DNA from: Candidatus Woesearchaeota archaeon
GTDB taxonomy: Archaea > Nanobdellota > Nanobdellia > Woesearchaeales > DSVV01
DNA length: 64,000 nucleotides
Reading direction: 5' to 3'
Assembly: GCA_018657385.1 (NCBI GenBank)
Contig: JABHXF010000034.1
Location: 8,081 to 72,080 of the forward strand
In this document: positions 5,243 to 49,551 of the stretch, piece by piece
Layout of the letters: every line of letters begins with the position of its first letter
Numbering within the stretch: position 1 is the first letter of the stretch
The notes under the pieces: generated by a model
What the model saw: only the letters and a program-made list of their open reading frames with translations
What the model was told of the DNA's origin: nothing
The model's database searches: none
Program-made: the position numbers and the translations under genes

Positions 5243-5363
5243 ACATTATAGTATATATGTCAGCAGACTATTTAAAGTTTTTGCTATTTTCTATATTAGA
5301 GTGGTAAAAGAAGATTTTGGTGGGATATTATTAAAAATAACAACAATGGTCAGTCTAAGTTTT

Positions 5364-5450
5364 AAATCCAACAATATGGCTGGATGAGCCGAAGGCGAAT
5401 AGGATATTTGCTTGCAAATGTCCGTCCGTGCCTGTGTTGTTGTTGGATTT
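5364..5450. repeat. structured intergenic repeat element, copy A. It has an 11-bp terminal inverted repeat AAATCCAACAA / TTGTTGGATTT that encloses the GC-rich hairpin core GGATATTTGCTTGCAAATGTCC. A second shared motif AAAAAGAGCCTGCCGGCCTGTTAAAAA lies at about 5487-5515.
   Basis: The same about 45-nt core plus the flanking CCAACAA/TTGTTGG arms recur at 7480-7614. It is GC-rich against the AT-rich background. Confidence 0.6.
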
Positions 5451-5542
5451 GTTATTAAGATATTAAAAAGAGAGAAGAATCAGAACAAAAAAGAGCCTGC
5501 CGGCCTGTTAAAAATTAAAAAAAATAAGAAAAAAAGAAAAAA

Positions 5543-7348
5543 CTAATTGCATGCATAGTTGTTTGGGTTGTAACAAATCGCTCCCTCTGGACATGTTAGT
5601 TCATAAACAGTTGGATAACCAGAACTCCATTTAGTACCCCATGAATATTCAGTACATGAATGTTGTTTATACTTAGGATTCCCATTATACACATTAGAAC
5701 AAATATATATTATATCACCCTCTTCACAATCATCATGACAATTACCATTATCAACAGAACAAATTTTAGGCATACCTGTTGGGGAAGACATTTTTGAACA
5801 CTCAACAATACTATTCATTTCTTCACCAGTACATGAATTAACTGACATATTGACTTGATCTAAGATCCCATCACCTGTTGCATCAATACATTTTGGTTCA
5901 CTTGTAGAAAGAGGCTTACAACAACCCTTATTTTCATCACAATCAATAGGTTCAAAGTTATATTGACCATCATAAGAAACTAAAAAGTCACCACAATAGT
6001 CTTCAGTATCATAAGTACCACCATTACAATTCCAATCCCAAAGTGACCCATATGCTGTTCCTTTCCAAGCTAATGAATTCCACTTAGAAATACATTCACC
6101 AGGTCCTGTAGGACTGAACTTACCAGGTGTACACTCAAATCCATCTAATGGTTCATTTTCTCCTGCTCCACCACCTGGTTGATTTAATGCCACATGTTGA
6201 CCAGCAGCATCTATAAAGAAATGTTGTGGATCAGCAAGATTATCCCAAGTAATCTTTGAAGGACAATCTGGATTAACTTCAGGTAAACTTTGTGCCATAG
6301 GACAAATATAAAATTCACTTGGCATTTTGAATGTTTTTGTTGCAGTACCTGGAACTTCTTCAATAGCTAAAACTTTGATTTGTTCACCATCAACTTCAAC
6401 TTCAACTCCTGTTATTCCCTGATCATTATTAAACTCAACAACAACTTCTTCCTCAGGACTTAACTCAATTTCAACTTCAACTTGATTTCCTTCTTCTGTA
6501 ACTTCAATTTCAGCTTCTTCTTCTTCACCATTTTCATTAACTACAACAATATCATCTTCTGTTATTGCAGGAGCAGTACAGCCCTTACCAAAACCTTCAA
6601 CACATACCTCAGGTGAATTACATTTTCCCCAAACTCCTTTTGCAGAAAGTGCACCATTTACACAAGAATAAACTCTAGGAGAACCACTAGCTGAACATTG
6701 ATTATAATCTTCATCACAAGCAACTTTACAATTTGCTTCTCCTGGTTCACCAACACAACTTCTGCTTAATCCATTGTAAGGATTTTTTTGAGCAGCACAA
6801 TTAGATTTTCCACCACCTTGTGCTTTATATAAATCATTACTATCACAATAAGGATATTCTTGTACCTCATCACTACCCATATTGACACATGCATCATTTA
6901 AACATCGATAATCAGCACCAGGATTATTGATATTAAGTTCGGCACAATTCTTTTGCCATCTTCCCACCTTACCATTATTCCTACAGAAGTATTCAAACAA
7001 ATAAGTTTTCCCACTGCTAAATGTATAACACTTATCTAATCTTGATTTTCCTTTATATGTAATTTTTCCTTTAATAAGCAATTGCTTTGGATCTTTTGTA
7101 GAATCTGCATCTTCATCATGACATTTACCTACAGTAAATGCTTGCCCAGATAAATCACCCGCAGCTTCATCATTATCAAATGGAATGTCTTCTTCTAATG
7201 CAAATTCTTCATCAGTAAGAATTTCTGCATCATCTCCAGATTCATCTGTAACTAATTTAGTACAACCATCAAACATTACAACTAAACCAAATAAAATCAT
7301 TAATGTTACTAATACTACTAAATACATAGAATGCTTATGTTTAACCAT
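5543..7348 (-). CDS. secreted or lipid-anchored cysteine-rich protein (601 aa, about 60 Cys, with a central acidic E/V-rich repeat region)
   Basis: N-terminal signal/TM MYLVVLVTLMILFGLVVMFDGC. There are many paired Cys and Gly/Asn-rich modules. Local GC (about 38-40%) is above the window average. The gene is flanked on both sides by the repeat element. Confidence 0.6.
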   Translation of the reverse strand: MVKHKHSMYLVVLVTLMILFGLVVMFDGCTKLVTDESGDDAEILTDEEFALEEDIPFDNDEAAGDLSGQAFTVGKCHDEDADSTKDPKQLLIKGKITYKGKSRLDKCYTFSSGKTYLFEYFCRNNGKVGRWQKNCAELNINNPGADYRCLNDACVNMGSDEVQEYPYCDSNDLYKAQGGGKSNCAAQKNPYNGLSRSCVGEPGEANCKVACDEDYNQCSASGSPRVYSCVNGALSAKGVWGKCNSPEVCVEGFGKGCTAPAITEDDIVVVNENGEEEEAEIEVTEEGNQVEVEIELSPEEEVVVEFNNDQGITGVEVEVDGEQIKVLAIEEVPGTATKTFKMPSEFYICPMAQSLPEVNPDCPSKITWDNLADPQHFFIDAAGQHVALNQPGGGAGENEPLDGFECTPGKFSPTGPGECISKWNSLAWKGTAYGSLWDWNCNGGTYDTEDYCGDFLVSYDGQYNFEPIDCDENKGCCKPLSTSEPKCIDATGDGILDQVNMSVNSCTGEEMNSIVECSKMSSPTGMPKICSVDNGNCHDDCEEGDIIYICSNVYNGNPKYKQHSCTEYSWGTKWSSGYPTVYELTCPEGAICYNPNNYACN

Positions 7349-7479
7349 CTTATCACCTTTTTTATTTTAATAATTATAGATTATAGTTAATCTAATGTTA
7401 ATTCTTATATGTTATTATATATAAATGTTACCATGAATTTAAAAAAATAAAAGATACTAAAATATTCAAGGAGAAAATT

Positions 7480-7614
7480 AAATCCAACAACATGGCTGGA
7501 TGAGCCTAAAGTGAATTGGACATTGGAATAAGAAAAAACAACTTGGCCAGGCGAGGCGTTAGCCGAGTAGGATATTTGCTTGCAAATGTCCGTCTGTGCC
7601 AGGGTTGTTGTTTT
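7480..7614. repeat. structured intergenic repeat element, copy B. It has the same core as 5364-5450 with an about 50-nt internal insertion and a degraded right arm. The motif AAAAAGAGCCTGCCGGCCTGTTAAAAA recurs at about 7676-7705.
   Basis: Direct sequence identity of AAATCCAACAAYATGGCTGGATGAGCC and TAGGATATTTGCTTGCAAATGTCCGTCYGTGCC with copy A. Confidence 0.6.
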
Positions 7615-7713
7615 TTCATATGTATCATTTAACCTAAAAAATTAAAACCCTTATGATTAAATTAAAAATCACAGCAAAAAGAGCCTGCCGGCCTGTTAAA
7701 AAAAAACAAAGAA

Positions 7714-8145
7714 TTACTTATACTCTTCAACACTTTCAAACAAAGTCATTAAACCTTGTTTTAATGCAGAATGTTCTGTTATTTTACTATGAGTAAAAGG
7801 ATAAATTATCCATTTTTTCTCAGTTGAAGAATTTGGATTTACAAAATATATACATAACATTGGCAATTCTGAAAGTTTTTTCCAAGAATTAATAATAATA
7901 TCAAAATTAGGTTTAGTATTAAAAGTTACAATACAAATTTGTTTGTCTTTGTAATCATCTAATAATTTATCAACAACATCAAGATGAGGTAAGATTGCAA
8001 AATATTGTGTATTTTCCTTTTGTTCAACTATAAGAATACCATCTTTTTCCTTAATATCTACAATTTTTTTATAAAAAAGATCCTTATGCTTAAGAAAAAG
8101 TATAAGCCATTCTTTTAATTCATCAAAATTCTTATCTTTTGCCAA
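7714..8145 (-). CDS. hypothetical protein (143 aa)
   Basis: ORF only. The shared GAGCCTGCCGGCCTG motif lies immediately downstream. Confidence 0.35.
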   Translation of the reverse strand: MAKDKNFDELKEWLILFLKHKDLFYKKIVDIKEKDGILIVEQKENTQYFAILPHLDVVDKLLDDYKDKQICIVTFNTKPNFDIIINSWKKLSELPMLCIYFVNPNSSTEKKWIIYPFTHSKITEHSALKQGLMTLFESVEEYK

Positions 8146-8296: not shown

Positions 8297-8881
8297 ATGG
8301 CAGATATTGGAACAATTAATGAAAGTTTGTTAACATCAACAGATAGGACTGCTTATTTATACTCTAAAGTACAACCAATATTTACAGAAATTGTTGTAGC
8401 TGTAATCATATTATTAATTGGTTTAATCATTGGTAAAATCCTTGGAAGAGTTGTTCAAAAGCTATTAAATAGCCTAGAATTAAACAAACTAATTAGAAAA
8501 TCCACTGGAATGAGAGTCAGGATAGAAGAGTTTTTTGCAAAAATCACTAGTTATTTTATATTCTTTATTGCTATAATTATGGCATTAGATGTACTTAATC
8601 TAACATCATCAATAATTTACATTGTATCAATTATGATAATTGCAATTATTGTAATATCAATTGCAATAAGTATTAAAGATTTTATTCCAAATATGATTGC
8701 AGGTCTTTACATCCATAAAAAAAATATGTTTAAAGAAGGCAAAAAAATTAAAATTGATGGATTAGAAGGAACAATTGAACAAATTAATTTGACTGAAATA
8801 AAATTAATTACAAAAAAAGGAGATATTGTATTTATCCCTAATTCTTTATTAACAAAAAAAGAAGTTGTTGTTAAAAAATAA
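8297..8881 (+). CDS. small MscS-like mechanosensitive channel family protein
   Basis: Three TM helices are followed by KIKIDGLEGTIEQINLTEIKLITKKGDIVFIPNSLL, which matches the MscS beta-domain signature (G..G.V..I.L..T.L.T.DG..V.IPNS). Confidence 0.55.
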   Translation: MADIGTINESLLTSTDRTAYLYSKVQPIFTEIVVAVIILLIGLIIGKILGRVVQKLLNSLELNKLIRKSTGMRVRIEEFFAKITSYFIFFIAIIMALDVLNLTSSIIYIVSIMIIAIIVISIAISIKDFIPNMIAGLYIHKKNMFKEGKKIKIDGLEGTIEQINLTEIKLITKKGDIVFIPNSLLTKKEVVVKK

Positions 8882-8887
8882 TTAAAA

Positions 8888-9012
8888 GTTTTGAGTAAGT
8901 AGTTCTTGGTCTTGAGTTGGTTAGTAGTAAGTAGTTATGTGTATCACCCCTTGTACTCAAAACTGATTTTCTCAGAACCCTCTCACAACTCATTACCCAA
9001 AACTCAGAACTA
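8888..9012. repeat. GT-rich/AC-rich imperfect palindromic element, divergent copy 1 of a 3-member family, between convergent genes
   Basis: GTTTTGAGTA (8888-8897) pairs with TACTCAAAAC (8954-8963). It shares the words GTTTTGAGT, GGGTAATGAGTTGTGAG and TGAGTTGGTT with the elements at 19345-19512 and 36961-37115. Confidence 0.5.
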
Positions 9013-14028: not shown

Positions 14029-15927
14029 TTATTTTGACTTTACTACATGAATAATCTCTTCCATCTTTTTAATTTCATTAATAACATCTTTTAATTTTAA
14101 TTCACTATCAACTTCAACACTTAATGTTGTTACAACTGATTCTTTTTTTGGTTTAGTATTTATATTTTTAAGATTTAGTTTGTATTCTGCAATTAAGTTT
14201 AAAACTTTTGCTAATGTTCCAACCTTATCCACCATAGTTAAAGCTAATTTTATAATAGGAAGTCTGTTTTCATCTTTCCATAAAACAGTTATTTCTTTTT
14301 TTGAATCCAAGGTATGAATATTAGGACAATCTTTTTTGTGAATAGTAATTTTCTTATCTTTAGTTAAAAACCCAACAATAGGATCTAACAATTTAGGAGA
14401 ACAACATTTAGATAGTTTAACAGGAGCTTTTTTACCAACAACATCAATTCGTTTTAAAATATCAATAGGCATTAATTCAATATCATCTTTTTTCTCGTGC
14501 TCAATTGTCATCCCCAATACTGATTTAATTTTACTTCTTGCTTTATTTGTTTTAACAAACTTTAACCATTGTCGAGAAGGTTTTGCATTTTTATTAATCA
14601 TAATTTCAATAATATCTCCTGATTCAAGTTTTGTTTCTAAAGGAACAATTTTATTATTGATTAATGCTTTTGAACATTTATTACCAATATTAGTATGAAC
14701 CATATATGCAAAATCAACAGTAGTAGAATCTTTTGGCAAAGTTATGGGGTCACCCTTTGGAGTAAACACAACCATCTCATCCTCAAATAAATCAATCTTT
14801 AATGTTTCAATAAATTCTGAAGACGTGCTTGCTAAATTACGCCACTCTAACATTTGTTTTAACCAAGAAATCTTTTTATCAAACAGTTGGTCCCTTTCTG
14901 TTCCTTGATAACGCCAATGAGCAGCAACACCATCTTCAGCCATGTGATGCATTTTTTCAGTTCTTATTTGGAACTCTAAAATCTTGCCACCCTCTGTTAT
15001 AACAGTCGTATGTAAACTTTGATAGCCATTTGATTTTGGTACAGAAATATAATCTTTAAATCGATGAGGAATAGGCTTATACATGTCATGAACTAAACCA
15101 ATAGCAGTATAACAATCAGGAATTGTTTTTGTAATAATTCTAACTGCAATTAAATCATAGATCTCATTAAAACCTACATTCTTTTTTTTCATTTTTTTGT
15201 AAATACTATAGAAATATTTTGCTCTTCCAGAAACTTTTGATTTTACATTCTTACTTTTTAATTGTTTTTTAATTTCTTTGATAATTTCAGCAGTATGTTT
15301 TTCTCTTTCATCTCTTTTTTCATCAATTTTGCTAGCTAAGAAACGATAAATTTCAGGTTCAAGATAACGTAAAGATAAATCTTCAAATTCTCCTTTTACA
15401 CTCCATATACCTAATTTATGGGCAATTGGTGCGTATATTTCCAAGGTTTGTTTTGCGATTCTTTTTTGTTTATCTACTGGAAGATATTTTAAAGTTCTTA
15501 TATTATGTAAACGATCTGCAAGTTTAATTAACATTACCCTCAGATCTTTAGCAGTTGCTAATAGTATTTTTCTTAAATTTTCATGAGTATAATCTTCTCT
15601 GCTACCAAAATGGATTTTATCAATTTTAGTAACACCTTCAACTAACCCAGCAATTTCATCTCCAAAAATTTGCTTTACTTTTTCAATCTTAATTTCAGTA
15701 TCTTCTACAATATCATGTAATAAAGCAGCACAGATAGATGCAGAATCTGCTTTTAAGCTTATCAAAATCTTGGCAACTTCAATAGGATGAGAGAAATATT
15801 CTTCACCACCAACTCTTTTTTGGCCTTTATGTGCCTTTTCTGCTAACACATAGGCTTTTTTGATTAGAGCTACATCTGCCTTAGGATTATATTTTAATAT
15901 TACTTTAACTAATTCTGATAATCTCAT
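14029..15927 (-). CDS. long RelA/SpoT homolog (RSH), a bifunctional (p)ppGpp synthetase/hydrolase with HD, synthetase, TGS and ACT domains
   Basis: HD motif HKGQKRVGGEEYFSHPIEVA...HDIVEDT. Synthetase motif DLIAVRIIT...RFKDYISVPKSNGYQSLHTTV. TGS-like region VFTPKGDPITLPKDSTTVDFAYMVHTNIG. A C-terminal ACT-like region is present. Confidence 0.85.
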   Translation of the reverse strand: MRLSELVKVILKYNPKADVALIKKAYVLAEKAHKGQKRVGGEEYFSHPIEVAKILISLKADSASICAALLHDIVEDTEIKIEKVKQIFGDEIAGLVEGVTKIDKIHFGSREDYTHENLRKILLATAKDLRVMLIKLADRLHNIRTLKYLPVDKQKRIAKQTLEIYAPIAHKLGIWSVKGEFEDLSLRYLEPEIYRFLASKIDEKRDEREKHTAEIIKEIKKQLKSKNVKSKVSGRAKYFYSIYKKMKKKNVGFNEIYDLIAVRIITKTIPDCYTAIGLVHDMYKPIPHRFKDYISVPKSNGYQSLHTTVITEGGKILEFQIRTEKMHHMAEDGVAAHWRYQGTERDQLFDKKISWLKQMLEWRNLASTSSEFIETLKIDLFEDEMVVFTPKGDPITLPKDSTTVDFAYMVHTNIGNKCSKALINNKIVPLETKLESGDIIEIMINKNAKPSRQWLKFVKTNKARSKIKSVLGMTIEHEKKDDIELMPIDILKRIDVVGKKAPVKLSKCCSPKLLDPIVGFLTKDKKITIHKKDCPNIHTLDSKKEITVLWKDENRLPIIKLALTMVDKVGTLAKVLNLIAEYKLNLKNINTKPKKESVVTTLSVEVDSELKLKDVINEIKKMEEIIHVVKSK

Positions 15928-19344: not shown

Positions 19345-19512
19345 TATGTGGTAAGTTAGGTCTTGAGTTTGGGGTCATGAGTTATGAGTTGGTTGTGGGT
19401 AAGTCAGTTATGGGATTTGGTTATGAGTTAATTAGTTTTGAGAAAAATACAGCGATACTAATTACTTATTAACTGATAACCAACCCAAAACCCATAACTC
19501 ATTACTCAAGAC
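19345..19512. repeat. GT-rich/AC-rich imperfect palindromic element, copy 2
   Basis: The left arm GGTCTTGAGTTTGGGGTCATGAGTTATGAG... pairs with the right arm ...CTCATTACTCAAGACTTATC. The core ATTTGGTTATGAGTTAATTAGTTTTGAGAAAAAT is 34/35 identical to 37024-37058. Confidence 0.6.
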
Positions 19513-19610: not shown

Positions 19611-20372
19611 ATGATATTTAGTGGTGGTATTGGAATTATTGTATTAGCAGTATTAATTCTATTATCTAGTTTGAAAGTAGTAAATGAATATGAACGTGGA
19701 GTTAAATTCACTTTAGGAAAGTATTCTGGAGTAATGTTGCCTGGATTAAGAATAGTTGTACCAATTCTTCAAACATGGCAAAAAGTTGATATGAGAGTAA
19801 AAGCAGTAGATGTTCCTGACCAAGAAAGTATTACTAAAGATAATATTACAGTTGGAATCAACGCTGTTATTTATTACAAAGTAAGAGACTCTGCAAAAGC
19901 AATTATTGAAGTCGAACATTATAATTATGCTATTTCTCAATTAGCACAAACAACAATGAGAAATGTTGTTGGAGAAGTTGAGTTAGATGAATTATTGAGT
20001 AAAAGAGACCAAATCAGTGATAAAATTAAGGAAATTGTAGACAAAGCAAGTGACCCATGGGGAATAGAAGTTGAAACAGTTGAATTAAAGGACATTACAT
20101 TGGCTCAAGACATGAAAAGAGTTATTGGAAAGCAAGCTGAAGCTGAAAGAGAAAAAAGAGCAGTTATTATTAAGGCAGAAGGTGAAGTAATTGCAGCTAA
20201 GAACATGGCAAAAGCAGCTGATATGTTGAACAAGTCAAATGGAGCGTTACATCTGAGAACATTACAAACATTAAATGATTTATCAAGTGATCAGAGTAAT
20301 ACTGTTGTATTTGCAACCCCTATTGAAGTCTTAAGAGCATTTGAAGGCTTTACAGGAAAAAAGAAAAAATAG
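19611..20372 (+). CDS. SPFH/band-7 (stomatin/prohibitin-like) membrane protein
   Basis: An N-terminal TM helix is followed by the SPFH core VKFTLGKYSGVMLPGLRIVVP...DNITVGINAVIYYKV and a coiled-coil tail with AEAEREKRA. Confidence 0.85.
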   Translation: MIFSGGIGIIVLAVLILLSSLKVVNEYERGVKFTLGKYSGVMLPGLRIVVPILQTWQKVDMRVKAVDVPDQESITKDNITVGINAVIYYKVRDSAKAIIEVEHYNYAISQLAQTTMRNVVGEVELDELLSKRDQISDKIKEIVDKASDPWGIEVETVELKDITLAQDMKRVIGKQAEAEREKRAVIIKAEGEVIAAKNMAKAADMLNKSNGALHLRTLQTLNDLSSDQSNTVVFATPIEVLRAFEGFTGKKKK

Positions 20373-20599
20373 TTTTTTTCTTTATTTTTCTTATTCTTTT
20401 TTACTAGGTCCGGAGGACAAGTCACTCATGAATTAGTTTTTCGGTCTTCGTAGTTTGTTATTAGTAACGAAAACCAAACAACGAAGAACTAATAACAATA
20501 ATTAGTGAACAAAACAATCCCCCAAAACCACCCACCCTTAAATAATAAAGGGAAAGAAAAACATAAACTTTATAATAATCTGAAATAAAAAACTAAAAT

Positions 20600-25578: not shown

Positions 25579-27954
25579 TTAATCAAATTCAATCTTCTTT
25601 TTAATTGGTAATTCAAATATAAAACTACTTCCTTTGTTAATTTCACTTTCAACATATATTTTTCCTTTATGTGCGTCTACAATATGTTTTGATATTGGAA
25701 GTCCTAATCCAGTTCCACCATATTGTCTAGTCATTGATGCATCTACTTGATAAAACTTATCAAATAGTCTGGGAATAACTTCCTTAGGAACACCAATACC
25801 AGTATCTTTAACCGTTGTTTTAATAAAATTATCCATTAATTCAATAATAACATAAATATTGCCATCTTTTGGGGTAAACTTAATTGCATTGCCAATTAAA
25901 TTAAAAAATATTTGTTTAATTAAATCTTGACTTGCACTAATTTTAGGAATATCTTTTTTTACATCAAGATGTATTTTAATGTCTTTATCATCAGCTAAAG
26001 TCGCAAGTGTTTTTATAACATCCCCTGCCACTATAATAATATCCATCTTTTCTTTCTTAAATTTAACTTTTCCTTTTTCAAGCTTTGCAAGGTCCAAAAC
26101 ATCATTAATTAATCTGCTTAATCTATCAGATTCTTCGATAATAATATTTAAACATTGCATTTGATTTTCTGGAAGCATCCCTAGTTTACCACCTAATAAT
26201 AGCTTAGTATAACCCTTAATACTAGTTAATGGTGTTCTTAATTCATGGCTTACATTACTAACAAATTCAGATTTCAATCTATCCATTCTTTCTAACTCTC
26301 TATTTTTTTCTACTAATTCTTTTGTGGCCATAAAAACTTCATTTTTTAATGTCTCGTTAAATAAACTAATTTCATTATATAATTTAGAGTTTTCAATAGC
26401 AATTGCAATATGGTTAGTTAAAATCTCTAATGGTTGTTTAAATTTTTCAAAGTTATTAAATTTAACACTATCTAAATTTAACACACCAATTACTTTTCCG
26501 GCTTTCATTAAAGGAATTACTGCTTCAGAAACAGTAGCTCTATTAACTTCAATATATCTTTTATCTTTTCTAACATCTGGAACAATCAAGGGTTTACCTT
26601 GTTTCGCTACCCACCCAGATAAACCTTCATCAATTTTGATTCTAACATTCTCTGCTTTTTCTATGGGATAACCTTTAATTAATTTCATATCTAAATAATC
26701 CCCCTTAACTAATAATAAAAAACCAGAATCAGAATTAGTAAATTCCATTGTTCTATCCATAATAATATTCAATAAGTTATCTAAATCAAGTTGTGCATTA
26801 ATAGTTTGACTTATTTCTAATAGGTTTGATAAAACATGACGTTCTTTTTTTATACTTGTATAAAATTCACTATTTCTAATACTCATTGCTGCTTGATTTG
26901 CTAATGTTTTCAATAGATCTAATTCATCTTTGTTATATCTTCTTAGCTTCTTAGTATAAATATTAATAGTCCCTAAGGATTTATCTTTTACAATAAGAGG
27001 AATTGTTAATAAACTCATTAATTTTACAGATTTTGCAAAACTTGGTCTAGCATATAATGGTTCCTTTAAAACTTCTTGAATATAAACTGGTTGTCTTGTT
27101 TTAACTGCTAATCCTGCAACACTATCATCTACAGGAATTGGACCATGATTAAAATATTCTTCTGATGAACTATAAGTTGATTTAGGAATTAAAAATTGAT
27201 TAGATTTATCAAGTAATGTAATAGTACAAGAATCAGAGTTAAGTAATTGAATAATTTTTACAATAATTAAACTTAAAATTTCATCTAAATCTAATGTTTT
27301 AGTAAGAGAAGAAGATATGTCATACATTGCTGTTAATTTCTTTAATCTTATACGATCCTCTCTATGAAGAACAGTATTATCAATTGCAAATGCAACTTGA
27401 TTTGCAAAAGGAAACAGATTATAAAGATCTTCTTTGATTAAAGGATTTTCTGAATATTTATTATCAATACTAATCATACCAATTACCCTTGTACCACTTA
27501 ATAATGGAAGGCTTGCAGATTCATTTACATCTTCTTTTTTAAGAATTTTAACAAATTTTGAAAATTGTGATGTTTTTAATATAATTGGCTCCTTTTTTGT
27601 AAAGCAATGGTATACTTTTTTGTGTACTTGAGAAATATCTAATTTAATATTTTTCATTGATATATCAGGCATGTGAGAAGATTTTGCCCCCATTAATAAT
27701 TTTTTTTGTTTGTCAAAAAGGTAAATTCTAACACGATCATAACCCCATAATTTAAATGCCTTAATTGTAAGCTCTAATATTTCATTAACATCCTCAGTGC
27801 ACTGGATAGAATTACTTATATCATGTAAACTTCTTAAGAACTGATTTTGGATTTTTAATTTTTTCTCAAAAGATAATTCTTCAGTTTCTTCTATTTTTCC
27901 TGATTTTTCTATCTCTTCTGTTTCTTCTTTTGTTTTCTTAACCATGTTTATCAC
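25579..27954 (-). CDS. sensor histidine kinase with multiple GAF domains plus HisKA and HATPase_c
   Basis: H-box VSHELRTPLTSIKGY, N-box FFNLIGNAIKFT, and G-boxes DTGIGVP and GGTGLGL. The N-terminus has about 450 aa of GAF-like repeats. Confidence 0.85.
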   Translation of the reverse strand: MINMVKKTKEETEEIEKSGKIEETEELSFEKKLKIQNQFLRSLHDISNSIQCTEDVNEILELTIKAFKLWGYDRVRIYLFDKQKKLLMGAKSSHMPDISMKNIKLDISQVHKKVYHCFTKKEPIILKTSQFSKFVKILKKEDVNESASLPLLSGTRVIGMISIDNKYSENPLIKEDLYNLFPFANQVAFAIDNTVLHREDRIRLKKLTAMYDISSSLTKTLDLDEILSLIIVKIIQLLNSDSCTITLLDKSNQFLIPKSTYSSSEEYFNHGPIPVDDSVAGLAVKTRQPVYIQEVLKEPLYARPSFAKSVKLMSLLTIPLIVKDKSLGTINIYTKKLRRYNKDELDLLKTLANQAAMSIRNSEFYTSIKKERHVLSNLLEISQTINAQLDLDNLLNIIMDRTMEFTNSDSGFLLLVKGDYLDMKLIKGYPIEKAENVRIKIDEGLSGWVAKQGKPLIVPDVRKDKRYIEVNRATVSEAVIPLMKAGKVIGVLNLDSVKFNNFEKFKQPLEILTNHIAIAIENSKLYNEISLFNETLKNEVFMATKELVEKNRELERMDRLKSEFVSNVSHELRTPLTSIKGYTKLLLGGKLGMLPENQMQCLNIIIEESDRLSRLINDVLDLAKLEKGKVKFKKEKMDIIIVAGDVIKTLATLADDKDIKIHLDVKKDIPKISASQDLIKQIFFNLIGNAIKFTPKDGNIYVIIELMDNFIKTTVKDTGIGVPKEVIPRLFDKFYQVDASMTRQYGGTGLGLPISKHIVDAHKGKIYVESEINKGSSFIFELPIKKKIEFD

Positions 27955-27995: not shown

Positions 27996-29567
27996 TCAAA
28001 CAGGTAATGTAAAACTGATTGTTGTACCCTGATTTAACTTACTTTTTATGGAAATTTTCCCACCAAATGCCTCTAGTATTTTTTTTACAATTGGTAATCC
28101 TAACCCTGAACCACCTTTAGTTCTAACCATATGTTCTTCTGCTTGATAAAATTTATCAAAAACAGTATCAAGATCTTGTTTTTTAATACCTTTACCATTA
28201 TCCAAAATAGTAATTTCAATAAATTTCTCCTTTTTTTTAGTAGAATTAATAATTTTCTTTGCAGAGATTGTAATCATATCACCATTACCAATAAATTTAA
28301 TACTATTATCAATGATATGATTCAATACTTGTATTAATTTTTGCTTGTCTACTACAATAAGTGGAATGTTTTTAGGAATATTGATTTTAATCTTAATTCT
28401 TTGTTTTTTTGCTAATTCAATTGTATTACATTCAGTTAAACATTGTTTTAAGGAAACACTAGTTTTGTTTAATTTCATATCGTCAGATTCTAATTTGGAT
28501 ATATCTAACATGTTATCAATTAGTTCAACCAGTACATCTGATTGGTCAATAATAATTTTTAATGCCTTAGATTGCCTATAATTAATGTCTCCAAACTTTC
28601 CTGAATTTAATAAAGAAGTATATCCTTTGATATTTGTTAAAGGTGTTCTTAATTCATGACTAACAGTACTTAAAAATTCAGTTTTCATATTTTCAGTTCT
28701 TCTTTGCTTTGTTATATCCCTAATTATACAAACTGCCCCAGAAAAAACAAGATTGTTATTATTGTTATTCTTACTAGTACTAGTTGTAGTAGTGATAGTA
28801 GTTCTTGTACTATTATTATCTAAAACAGGAGAAACTATTGCAGTTATAATCTTGTTAAGAGGTTTTATTTCAAATTCCAGGCAATCATCTCTAAAATTAC
28901 ATTTTTTACTTGAGTTTTTTTTATTTTTTTCTAAGTTTATATTATTTATATTTGTGGTCAAAGTATCTGGATCAATATATAGATTATTCAAACCATATTT
29001 TTTTAATTGTAAAATATGTTTACCAATAGCTTTTGAAGCATTAATGTCAAATATATCCTCAGCTGATTTATTAAAAACAATTATTTTATTAGCACTATCT
29101 GTTACAATAACCCCATCACCCATTGATTCTATAATTAATTCTTTCTTTATTCTTTCTTTTGAAGCTATACCTTTAACTTTTTTACCATATCGTTTTTCTG
29201 CTTTTAATTTTGAAACCATTTTATTAAATGATTCTACTAATCTCCCAAATTCATCATTGCTTTGCTTATCTATTTTCTGACTAAGATCACCTTCAGTTAC
29301 TAGTTGTGTTCCAATAATTACCTTATCTAAAGGTTTAATTAACATATGAACAATAAACAATGAAATAAAAATAAGTAAAACAAAAGTTGCAATACCAATA
29401 GAGTAAAAGTTTTGAATAAACCCATCATATTTTAATGGAGTATTAATAACAACATTCCCTGTAACATCTACTATTGGTCTAGTTCCTAAAAATAAACCAA
29501 CAAGAATTATAGATGAAACTAATAAAAACATAACTAACAACATTATTTTATTCTTTACTGATACCAT
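27996..29567 (-). CDS. membrane sensor histidine kinase (2 TM, HAMP, PAS, HisKA, HATPase_c) with a T/N low-complexity insert
   Basis: VSHELRTPLTNIKGY, DNGKGI and GGSGLGL. TTITTTTSTSKNNNNNN lies in a linker. Confidence 0.85.
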   Translation of the reverse strand: MVSVKNKIMLLVMFLLVSSIILVGLFLGTRPIVDVTGNVVINTPLKYDGFIQNFYSIGIATFVLLIFISLFIVHMLIKPLDKVIIGTQLVTEGDLSQKIDKQSNDEFGRLVESFNKMVSKLKAEKRYGKKVKGIASKERIKKELIIESMGDGVIVTDSANKIIVFNKSAEDIFDINASKAIGKHILQLKKYGLNNLYIDPDTLTTNINNINLEKNKKNSSKKCNFRDDCLEFEIKPLNKIITAIVSPVLDNNSTRTTITTTTSTSKNNNNNNLVFSGAVCIIRDITKQRRTENMKTEFLSTVSHELRTPLTNIKGYTSLLNSGKFGDINYRQSKALKIIIDQSDVLVELIDNMLDISKLESDDMKLNKTSVSLKQCLTECNTIELAKKQRIKIKINIPKNIPLIVVDKQKLIQVLNHIIDNSIKFIGNGDMITISAKKIINSTKKKEKFIEITILDNGKGIKKQDLDTVFDKFYQAEEHMVRTKGGSGLGLPIVKKILEAFGGKISIKSKLNQGTTISFTLPV

Positions 29568-29614: not shown

Positions 29615-30628
29615 TTAAGTTATTTTATCAAATACTTGATTGAAATCAAGATTTTTTTCTTGAATTTCTTTACCAGATAACATATTAACGTCTAGTTTTA
29701 ATTCTTTAAAGTTTGAATCAATATAAGGTAACATTTTTTCAAAGGCTACTTTAACTTCTTCATCTACACCTTTCATATCGCCAATTAAAACAAAATTATT
29801 ATTAATTGTATGACCTAAAAAACAATTTTGACCTAAAGTATTATTATTAATTAATCTCTGAAAGAGAACAAGTAATTCATTATGTTTCTTATAACCCTTT
29901 TCATCTGCAAACTTGCTTAAGCCATTTAACTTAAAATTATAAACATTAAAATATTTATTTTCAGCAATGTATTTATTCAACTCTTCTAGGATAAGATTTT
30001 TATCAGGTAATTTTGTGATTGGATGTTTACCAATTTGAGTTGAATGTTTCAGATTAAGATTAATTCTTGCTTCTAACTCAAGTGGATCAAATGGTTTTGT
30101 AATATAATCATCAGCCCCAACATCAATACCATCTATTTTATCTTTAATTTCTCCTTTTGCACTAAGTATAATAACATGAATATGTGAAGTTAATGGATTT
30201 TCTTTAAGAATTTTACAAACCTCATATCCACTCATACCAGGCATCATTAAATCTAAAACAAGAAGATCTACTTTGTTCTTTTTTAAAACTTCTAAAGCTT
30301 CATTTCCTGAATATGCTTCAAAAATATTAAATTTATCAGAAGCTAAACTTAATTTAATAAGATTTACAACATGTGGTTCATCATCTACAACTAAAATATT
30401 TGGTTTCTGTTGTTGTTCTGTTAGTTTCCATAATTTTGCCTGAGCAACTTCTTGTTGTGTAACTAAATTTTGTGCTTGTAATACTTCTAAATATTTAGAA
30501 ATAGTTAACCTATTATGTTGAATTTGTTTAGAAATCTCTGTAGATGATGCCCCAAACTCTGTAGTTTTTAAAAATTGTAATATTTTATCTTTAATATTAT
30601 TGTTATTATTGTTATTGATGTTAATCAC
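29615..30628 (-). CDS. response regulator with an N-terminal winged-HTH, a central REC and an uncharacterised C-terminal domain of about 130 aa
   Basis: A poly-N start is followed by the HTH FLKTTEFGASSTEISKQIQHNRLTISKYLEVL. The REC is ILVVDDEPHVVNLIK...DLLVLDLMMPGMSGYEV...GADDYITKPF. The C-terminal domain has no recognised motif. Confidence 0.75.
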   Translation of the reverse strand: MININNNNNNNIKDKILQFLKTTEFGASSTEISKQIQHNRLTISKYLEVLQAQNLVTQQEVAQAKLWKLTEQQQKPNILVVDDEPHVVNLIKLSLASDKFNIFEAYSGNEALEVLKKNKVDLLVLDLMMPGMSGYEVCKILKENPLTSHIHVIILSAKGEIKDKIDGIDVGADDYITKPFDPLELEARINLNLKHSTQIGKHPITKLPDKNLILEELNKYIAENKYFNVYNFKLNGLSKFADEKGYKKHNELLVLFQRLINNNTLGQNCFLGHTINNNFVLIGDMKGVDEEVKVAFEKMLPYIDSNFKELKLDVNMLSGKEIQEKNLDFNQVFDKIT

Positions 30629-30756
30629 CTGCTTTATGAATAATTATTTATCTACCATTAGTTATAGTATCTCATTTAAGGATTTGTTATAACTTCAAAT
30701 TTAATATCAGATTAATATTTAGTTTCTAAATTAATTTAAACACTTAAAAAATAAAA

Positions 30757-31137
30757 TTATTTGGACATGTTTAAGTTTAATTTTATTCTCTTAACTAATT
30801 CCATTGGATCAAATGGCTTTGTCATGTAATCATCAGCACCAACATCAATTGCATGTAATTTATCATTCATTTGACTTTTTGCACTTAATATCAAAACTGG
30901 AACATTCCTTGTTTTAGGATTTTCTCTTAATGCCTTACATAATTCATAACCATTGACACCAGGCATCATTAGATCTAAAACAACTAAGTCTGGTATGCTT
31001 TTATCAATATGCATTAGTGCTTCTCTTCCAGAATAAGCACCAGTTACATTATATTTATCTTTGTTCAAGCTAAGCTTAATTAGATTTACAATGTGTGGTT
31101 CATCATCCACAATAAGTACATTTTTTCTTTCTTCCAT
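30757..31137 (-). CDS. stand-alone response regulator receiver (REC), paralog of the REC in 29615..30628
   Basis: VLIVDDEPHIVNLIK...DLVVLDLMMPGVNGYEL...GADDYMTKPF. Confidence 0.85.
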   Translation of the reverse strand: MEERKNVLIVDDEPHIVNLIKLSLNKDKYNVTGAYSGREALMHIDKSIPDLVVLDLMMPGVNGYELCKALRENPKTRNVPVLILSAKSQMNDKLHAIDVGADDYMTKPFDPMELVKRIKLNLNMSK

Positions 31138-36894: not shown

Positions 36895-36960
36895 ATTGTA
36901 ATTATGAGATCTGTATTTTTTATTAAATGTCCTTTATAAGAGAGATTTTATGTAATTAAT

Positions 36961-37115
36961 AAGGTTTTGAGTTATGGGTAATGTGTTTTGAGTTGGTTCT
37001 GTGTAAATCAGTTGTGAGATTTGGTTATGAGTTAATTAGTTTTTAGAAAAATGTAGTAATACTCATAACCACTTACTGATAACCAACTCAAGACATAAAA
37101 CTCATTACTCATAAT
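36961..37115. repeat. GT-rich/AC-rich imperfect palindromic element, copy 3
   Basis: The left arm GGTTTTGAGTTATGGGTAATGTGTTTTGAGTTGGTT pairs with the right arm AACCAACTCAAGACATAAAACTCATTACTCATA. It shares a 34/35 core with copy 2. Confidence 0.6.
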
Positions 37116-37247
37116 TATAACATATAATATAAACTACTCTATATATAAATATATATCTTCCATAAAGCTTATAAATAAAACTAGGTTCTTTCAGTATTGA
37201 AATGGGTGTGTAAAAGATAGAAAAGCAGGGATACCCATAAAAAGAAA

Positions 37248-44701: not shown

Positions 44702-47401
<2,700 letters not shown>

Positions 47402-47460: not shown

Positions 47461-49547
<2,087 letters not shown>

Positions 49548-49551
<4 letters not shown>

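Follow-up and report, generated by a model that had tools for sequence, protein, structure and literature searches.

Several described systems resemble the repeat examined here. Prokaryotic MITEs (miniature inverted-repeat transposable elements) with structure at the RNA level, such as ERIC/IRU of enterobacteria and Correia of Neisseria, are short, non-coding, intergenic sequences present in many copies and in either orientation. Bacterial repetitive extragenic palindromes (REPs) are single hairpins of 20-40 nt, and we know of no REP system described in archaea. Integron attC sites conserve their shape and not their central sequence, and RYYYAAC / GTTRRRY is the consensus of the integron core site. 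The present analysis concerned a 64,000-nt stretch of Candidatus Woesearchaeota archaeon (GenBank assembly GCA_018657385.1, contig JABHXF010000034.1, positions 8,081 to 72,080 of the forward strand; hereafter the window) and a repeat in it, termed E, two complete copies of which (E1 and E2b) flank a gene for a Cys-rich protein of 601 amino acids (aa). The DNA was very AT-rich (27% G+C) and encoded archaeal markers (ribosomal protein L37ae, Pcc1, prefoldin, CDC48, and GatD), and marine metagenome contigs of up to 282 kb carried DNA identical to it; the window thus derives from the chromosome of a DPANN archaeon (Woesearchaeota). We found that E1 and E2b are local representatives of a repeat family that is deeply conserved and strongly structured. 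A Woesearchaeal genome is reported in a published survey to contain 105 MITE-like elements per Mb, among the highest densities in archaea (PMC11602168), and E may therefore be counted there, uncharacterised.

A repeat family with a conserved three-way junction

The members of the family found at the locus were as follows.

5333..5353, + strand: decayed piece from the 5' part of a further copy of E (AAAAATAACAACAATGGTCAG), stacked upstream of E1 (read from the sequence)
5364..5450, + strand: E1, complete element (covariance-model match of 103 bits at 5362-5451; family covariation)
7480..7532, + strand: E2a, truncated 5' piece of E1 type (26 of its first 27 positions identical to E1)
7533..7616, + strand: E2b, complete variant element (covariance-model match of 86 bits at 7529-7619; alignment)

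The fold of E, formed by one strand, is a conserved three-way junction. Ten E copies served to build a covariance model, which identified 83 members of the family over 494 kb of related sequence. Pairs formed in 97-98% of cells: in the alignment fitted to the model, 97.1% of 2546 cells were standard pairs, and 26 of the 33 pairs were changed on both sides. When the partners were slid by 1-3 columns as a control, 41-59% of the cells paired. RNAalifold predicted the same helices when given 28 diverse copies aligned simply with MAFFT, without any fitting to the fold. The closing stem (P1) was 12-13 bp long with 95-96% of its cells paired, the 5' arm being A-rich and the 3' arm U-rich, and its sequence differed freely between genomes by compensation (AAAUCCAACAAC, GAAAAUAACAAC, CAAAAAAUAACAAC, GGUGAUGAU, and AAAUUACUAUUCC, all matched by their complements). 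P2 was a nearly invariant 7-bp stem, GGCCRGR / UCYG(U)GCC, in which one U was always bulged and one pair was either A:U (50 copies) or G:C (21 copies), a clean switch. In the P4 hairpin, a Watson-Crick pair was followed by two G.A pairs in tandem and by a stem of 3 bp in which every combination occurred, and the loop was mostly GAA or GNNA. The closing pair of P4, formed by the base after P2 and the purine of GA-R-UA, covaried as Watson-Crick partners do, being C:G in 55 copies, U:A in 13, C:A in 2, and U:G in 1. The strands of the junction were 0 nt, UA (a linker), and a single unpaired G, and the P5 hairpin opened with the invariant pairs G-C, G-C, and A-U (GGA...UCC) and extended over 4 to about 14 bp. 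Across genera the core hardly varied, whereas P1, P4, and P5 underwent compensatory change. Since G:U pairs (155) far outnumbered A:C mismatches (15), selection acts on the + strand of the window copies, in the form of either RNA or single-stranded DNA (ssDNA).

E1 had a predicted folding energy of -36 kcal/mol (z = -5.5) on the + strand, and the opposite strand folded less well. Its helices were P1 with the arms AAAUCCAACAAUA / UGUUGUUGGAUUU, P2 with GGCUGGA / UCCG(U)GCC, P4 with U-GA-GCC-GAA-GGC-GA-A, and P5 with GGAUAUUUG-CUUG-CAAAUGUCC. E2b had its own arms (AAAAAACAAC / GUUGUUGUUUUUU), a P4 stem swapped to GGC-GUUA-GCC from the GCC-GAA-GGC of E1, and a compensated P2 pair, A:U where E1 has G:C. 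A preliminary description of the locus, made from its sequence, had reported a shared 33-nt core, and this was indeed present exactly twice in the window (5400-5432 and 7568-7600, both + strand), where none would be expected by chance. The arms AAATCCAACAA/TTGTTGGATTT that it gave close the first copy (5364-5450). The second copy is not the single 135-nt element that had been assumed. It comprises the truncated piece E2a, which diverges from E1 after its first 27 nt (TAAAGTGAATTGGACATTGGAATAAG follows), and the complete E2b. A composite of the E2a and E2b type was also present in L016 (L-numbers, such as L001 or L070, denote loci in related DNA), and decayed 5' pieces like the one at 5333-5353 lay upstream of full copies in L007, L010, L016, and L026. 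Scanning of the window with the covariance model returned E1 and E2b only.

The family extended well beyond the window. A degenerate pattern of the core matched 24 stretches of a metagenome collection in many different contexts, and a pattern allowing variable hairpins matched 38 stretches of the genomes representing GTDB species; a first genome scan with the long-hairpin core gave no matches, and the structure-aware pattern was required. Of the 38 stretches, 27 belonged to one metagenome-assembled genome (MAG) of Woesearchaeota, SI074_bin25, with 29 strict matches on 10 contigs, to which the covariance model added further copies. The others came from Bin_274, SuakinDeep_MAG79_5, RIFCSPHIGHO2_02_FULL_36_9, a marine Nanoarchaeota MAG (Modern_marine), and one MAG labelled Methanosarcinales. 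E ranged over marine, brine, and groundwater Woesearchaeota, with a unit length of about 85-100 nt and a density of roughly 20-30 or more copies per Mb. Viral contigs carried no copies, and a viral origin of E was rejected on that ground. Rfam 15 gave zero matches in the window at the gathering threshold and one tRNA only in 141 kb of SI074_bin25, and around the elements a search up to an E-value of 10 returned unrelated chance matches. No description of the element was found in the literature searched, and the family is apparently undescribed. Had E been confined to its two sites in the window, with no structure conserved elsewhere, the idea of a MITE-like or non-coding RNA element would have failed; with 83 copies and strong compensatory change, that wording has proved a fair description of a multi-copy, structured element.

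Placement, persistence and possible nature of the copies

All E copies were intergenic. Of the 65 that could be classified, tandem regions contained 20 in sense and 18 in antisense orientation, divergent starts enclosed 15, and convergent ends enclosed 12. The four settings were similarly frequent and orientation relative to neighbouring genes was random; it was also unbiased with respect to local base skew (35/35). Some copies began 0-5 nt past a stop codon, as in L007 and L036, where the gene is one that we take to be ribC from a reading of its translated N-terminus, without a database search. Runs of A4 or longer were enriched in the 5' arm (74% of copies), as were runs of T4 or longer in the 3' arm (69% of copies versus 27% in the background). 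No TATA- or BRE-like (B recognition element) signal was found at a fixed distance upstream of P1, and the strong promoter motif of the genome (AAACnTTTATATA-like) was located upstream in sense orientation in about 10 of 74 copies, at no preferred distance. Pairs of E stood head-to-head or tail-to-tail, 10-60 nt apart, in L009/L028 (~1755-1945), L027 (2598-2790), L045 (5303-5551), L058 (300-518), and L059 (255-509). In many copies of SI074_bin25 (e.g. in L031, L052, L056, L057, and L060), ATAC preceded the 5' A-run and recurred 3-5 nt past the 3' T-run; these flanks could be a 4-bp target duplication or a stem extension, and flanking TTTA or ATAC repeats are indistinguishable from an extension of the stem. 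The same genome also contained a small repeat of about 55 nt (CTTGATGTTAATCA..TTCGACTTTAGTCGTAATTATTATTG) inserted within the 3' arm of several E copies (L038 ~2610-2670; L042 ~3040, - strand; L063 near 7600, - strand).

Comparison among relatives revealed both turnover and persistence. The genus of the window and SI074_bin25 had E positions in common at L025/L060, L007/L036 (two positions), and L008/L051. E was inverted in 2 of the 4 orthologous-position comparisons, and the orthologous pair downstream of ribC had the same P2 and P4 variants with a remodelled P5. At the locus of the window, E was absent from the orthologous site in three relatives (L070, L073, and L068), which were too diverged for base-exact empty sites. 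In the genus of the window, between one and four truncated pieces stood upstream of at least 10 full copies, and every piece started at the first base of P1 and stopped near the end of the 5' strand of P2; no 3' pieces were found downstream of full copies. Composite units, made of a piece, a full copy, a spacer, and a short gene-end motif termed H2 (described below), recurred at unrelated loci, and arm sequences were uniform within a genome, shared positions included. Taken together, the stacks of 5' pieces, the composites, the genome-uniform arms, and the relatives without E at the locus suggested a renewal in which new copies are made on top of or beside resident ones.

Under our preferred interpretation, which is tentative and which we rate a little short of probable, E would be a non-autonomous repeat whose single-stranded form is recognised. 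A trans-acting protein would read the fold as a single strand, either RNA or ssDNA, and E would persist by being copied into intergenic DNA, often onto or beside copies already there. Such copying would account for the stacks of 5' pieces, the uniform arms within a genome, and the changes of orientation at conserved positions. In its favour are the size and range of the family, the covarying strand-specific fold, and a behaviour like that of repeats: intergenic placement in random orientation, no promoter motif at a fixed distance, arms that act as terminal inverted repeats, absence or inversion at orthologous positions, 5' pieces without 3' counterparts, recurrent composites, and the surveyed density of MITE-like elements. 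Several observations weigh against this interpretation. At the shared positions the flanking proteins were only 60-84% identical between the genera, and the fold was nevertheless intact. Pairing of 97% over 79 distinct copies is a sign that purifying selection acts on every copy, and a function for the host fits that better than decaying selfish DNA does. Viral contigs, as noted, carried no copies. No transposase, reverse transcriptase, transposase domain, or recurring gene was found among the 449 open reading frames (ORFs) neighbouring copies (~560 kb). Of the two signs of mobility that the preliminary description proposed to look for, dispersed copies of the core were plentiful in the metagenomic (24) and GTDB (38) stretches, but no target-site duplication was definable, as the relatives gave no clean boundaries.

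It is possible, although we consider it rather unlikely, that E is instead a multi-copy gene family of a small trans-acting RNA, for instance the RNA part of an abundant ribonucleoprotein, with each copy transcribed independently, from the start of P1 to the U-run that ends it. The almost invariant core, the compensated P1, P4, and P5, and the strand-specific fold would be expected of such a gene, and so would the intact copies retained at orthologous positions and the first base shared by the truncated pieces, which would be the defined 5' end of the RNA. An oligo-T run is the archaeal termination signal, and the T-runs that end the 3' arm would agree with it. However, the upstream regions provided neither a promoter signal at a fixed distance nor a positional peak of the strong promoter motif, some copies left 0-5 nt between a stop codon and their first base, and a genome of only some 1-2 Mb would hardly be expected to carry tens of gene copies for a single RNA.

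Less probable still, and in our judgement unlikely, is a cis-acting RNA module in untranslated parts of transcripts, which by analogy with bacterial REPs might serve as a two-way terminator, a shield of 3' ends, or a processing or insulator signal. The order of A-run, stable GC-rich fold, and T-run would present a hairpin followed by U's in either direction of transcription, some copies lay directly between a stop codon and the start of the next gene, and E often adjoined the H2 motif. The distribution of copies did not bear out a terminator role, since divergent starts, where no terminator is required, held 15 of the 65 copies and convergent ends held 12. Sense and antisense copies in tandem genes were also nearly equal in number (20 versus 18), though one strand alone folds well, and a plain terminator would need no invariant junction across genera.

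A small self-cleaving ribozyme, possibly spreading by copying of RNA in the manner of a short interspersed nuclear element (SINE), appeared very improbable to us. The compact three-way junction, the G.A-flanked hairpin, the few invariant unpaired bases (UA, G, and the bulged U), the peripheral stems of variable length, and the many copies per genome would all suit a ribozyme, and stacks of 5'-complete pieces might arise from template jumping by a reverse transcriptase. No Rfam ribozyme family matched, however, even at E-values up to 10; the core of the hammerhead (CUGANGA, GAAA, UH) was absent, and most copies would have G as position 14 of that core. The conserved bases lay mostly in helices, which argues for recognition by a protein, and no reverse transcriptase was found among the ORFs near copies.

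A bolder proposal, which we regard as unlikely but worth stating, is that E represents a new class of functional RNA in DPANN archaea. It might process itself and spread through an RNA intermediate, as a counterpart of SINEs or retrozymes, with the stacks as scars of template jumping, or it might be a module that recruits a protein at tens of loci. E takes up a noticeable share of the intergenic space in tiny DPANN genomes that have little non-coding DNA, its junction is almost invariant in marine, brine, and groundwater lineages, and covariation this strong usually marks a molecule with a specific partner. The partner of E could reveal a mobility system new to archaea or a new RNA-protein machine. 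A covariance model of E would annotate dozens of loci per genome and would stop GC-rich islands from being misread as cassette borders or small genes.

The Cys-rich gene, the H2 motif and the local setting

The remaining features of the locus, with a third H2 copy elsewhere in the window, were the following.

5543..7348, - strand: gene for the 601-aa protein, probably a cell-surface protein, outside the repeat family (ORF translation, homologue search, and predicted model)
5488..5514, + strand: H2 copy 1, 29 nt past the stop codon of the Cys-rich gene
7676..7702, + strand: H2 copy 2, 12 nt past the stop codon of a 143-aa gene (7714-8145, - strand)
20403..20418, - strand: H2 copy 3, of type GTCCTCCGGACCTAGT, 30 nt past the stop codon of the gene at 19611-20372 (+ strand), with no E near

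In the closest relatives, L070 and L073, the orthologues of the 143-aa gene and of the gene of the 154-aa flanking protein were adjacent, 174 nt apart in L070 (154-aa orthologue 82% identical) and 93 nt apart in L073 (66% identical), and both the Cys-rich gene and E were missing. L068 (67% identical) had a 422-aa Cys-rich paralogue between the two flanking genes and a 446-aa paralogue 3 kb away, 55% identical to the N-terminal half of the 601-aa protein, and its 21 kb contained no E. All four genomes conserved the final 75 nt ahead of the 154-aa gene; everything upstream of them was too diverged for the ends of an insertion to be defined. The Cys-rich paralogues shared their own promoter (AACATTTATATA ... 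AAAATAAAAAGGTGA) and a T-rich tail. Since the paralogues in L068 need no E and the gene is absent in L070 and L073, the gene comes and goes on its own; it is a lineage-variable member of a surface-protein family, unrelated to E. The idea that E copies bound the Cys-rich gene as a mobile or recombining cassette (an integron or composite element), raised in the preliminary description, is largely refuted and highly improbable: direct repeats of E and H2 do bracket the gene, L070 and L073 have its two flanking genes but not the gene itself between them, and, as read from the sequence, one arm type fits the integron core site (ATCCAAC as RYYYAAC, GTTGGAT as GTTRRRY), but L068 carries Cys-rich paralogues without E, E elsewhere flanks core genes such as ribC in all intergenic types and orientations and forms no uniform arrays, the other arm types misfit the consensus, the conserved centre is unlike attC, no integrase was found among the ORFs scanned, and H2 at the end of the 143-aa gene is ancestral.

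The 601-aa protein is annotated by NCBI as a hypothetical protein of Candidatus Woesearchaeota archaeon. It contained 37 Cys residues and not the roughly 60 first counted, whereas its signal-peptide-like N-terminus was borne out, with residues 7-29 forming a hydrophobic helix (an anchor of membrane or signal type), and its acidic stretch was located at residues ~262-330. The G+C content of the gene (0.33-0.37) was above that of its immediate neighbours (0.22-0.30) as described, but values of 0.33-0.34 occurred elsewhere in the window, so the excess was modest. The homology and structure searches that had been proposed gave no Pfam family and no PDB sequence match, and a PDB fold search with the AlphaFold model returned no match with an E-value below 0.1. 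A full HMMER scan yielded 63 cluster representatives, nearly all matching via a domain at residues ~72-160 in which C76, C107, C122, C135, C149, and C154 were invariant or nearly so; a few homologues carried BACON, CARDB, or LRR modules. The AlphaFold model (mean pLDDT 60, the predicted local distance difference test) comprised the helix at 7-29, confident parts at 70-160 and 540-600, and an acidic, beta-rich middle. These features suggest that the protein is probably a membrane-anchored or secreted surface protein. A link to a diversity-generating retroelement was rejected, as the window held no pair of template and variable repeats.

The 27-mer AAAAAGAGCCTGCCGGCCTGTTAAAAA occurred exactly twice in the window (5488-5514 and 7676-7702), 37 and 59 nt past the elements, as had been noted. 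It was not specific to these two sites, a related copy at 20403-20418 having no element nearby. The identity of the two 27-mers suggested a recent local duplication or gene conversion. On the - strand, H2 copy 1 read as a T-run, AACAG, a short GC hairpin, and a T-run. We collected 26 related H2 copies of two types, GAGCC-UGCC-GGCCUGUU and GUCC-NNN-GGACCUAGU, some standing by themselves and others on either side of E, in both strand orientations; 12 of 25 lay on a gene's own strand within 60 nt past its stop codon. The three H2 copies of the window and that of L070 were on the strand of their gene, 12-33 nt past the stop codon and after a T-run; the L070 copy was of the other sequence type and stood at the end of the orthologous 143-aa gene with no E. 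H2 as a part of E was therefore rejected, given that it occurs alone, on either side, on either strand, and without E in L070. RNAalifold gave no consensus pairs for H2, its short stem having no support from covariation. H2 is probably a gene-end hairpin linked to termination, a reading suggested by its position after genes.

Other features of the window are recorded here as separate observations. A second intergenic repeat family was present at 19345-19508 and 36949-37132 and, inverted, at 8871-9006. Its copies were 75-86% alike and formed a long hairpin of ~160 nt that was rich in G/U in the 5' half and in A/C in the 3' half; for one copy the folding energy was -48.8 kcal/mol (z = -4.4). Paralogous sequences duplicated locally, 70-77% alike, were found at 30060-30401 versus 30782-31123, involving the small genes at 29615-31137, and at 26197-26290 versus 28608-28701, within sensor-kinase-like genes (25579-27954 and 27996-29567). 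A long protein of RelA/SpoT type with HD, RelA_SpoT, TGS, and ACT domains was encoded at 14029-15927 (- strand) and was kept in L001 and L068; long enzymes of this type are mainly bacterial. Runs of AAT codons for poly-Asn lay at 45494-45540 and 48028-48126 within large ORFs (44702-47401 and 47461-49551). Neither ARAGORN nor Rfam found tRNA genes in the window, and ARAGORN found only one over ~430 kb of loci, because the tRNA genes of these genomes hold long introns. Those of SI074_bin25 did so, as in L037 (2347-2569), where a tRNA with a 36-nt intron was directly followed by a second intron-bearing tRNA-like sequence.

Comparison with known systems

The hammerhead ribozyme, like E, has three helices at a junction and a short hairpin extended by two sheared G.A pairs, and a minority of E copies read CAGAUGA-stem-GAAUA. 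The junction strands differ, being 0, 2, and 1 nt in E and 7, 3, and 1 nt in the hammerhead, and the catalytic bases of the hammerhead core are missing or variable in E. The hammerhead was rejected on this junction (GA / GARUA, with G at the position of the invariant A in most hammerheads) and on the Rfam search described above. A kink-turn was also rejected, because the closing Y:R pair of P4 was found: no bulge lies 5' of the GA, and Watson-Crick pairs stand on both sides of the tandem G.A pairs. Links to tRNA, split tRNA, or introns were dismissed after ARAGORN and the Rfam tRNA model gave no match on E, whose P5 loop is variable in length and sequence, as were twister, pistol, hatchet, C/D, H/ACA, signal recognition particle RNA, and RNase P, for which there were no Rfam matches and the cores did not fit.

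With integron attC sites E shares an imperfect inverted repeat that functions on one strand, as well as the one arm type that fits RYYYAAC...GTTRRRY. E differs in its conserved centre and three-way junction, and it forms no uniform arrays. An attC identity was rejected because the AAATCC-type arm alone fits the consensus, orientations are mixed, and the scanned ORFs encode no integrase.

REPs, or bacterial interspersed mosaic elements (BIMEs), and their RAYT partners (Y1/HUH) provide another parallel. They have in common with E a strand-specific imperfect fold with a bulge, adjacent inverted pairs, and genome-uniform arms, and GUAG stands immediately 5' of the hairpin in REPs as in E (GA-GUAG-GA...). 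No RAYT-like or Y1-type gene was found in Pfam scans of the ORFs neighbouring copies. Where a REP is a single short hairpin, E is a 90-nt three-way junction.

MITEs resemble E in having terminal inverted repeats (the P1 arms of E), a presence that varies among relatives, and a compensated fold. E shows terminal inverted repeats, many dispersed copies per genome, and filled and empty sites among relatives, as MITEs do. No target-site duplication was definable for E. It departs from MITEs in that no parent insertion sequence with the same ends was found in ~560 kb of neighbouring DNA, and in its core, a near-invariant three-way junction across genera and habitats that stays intact at orthologous positions.

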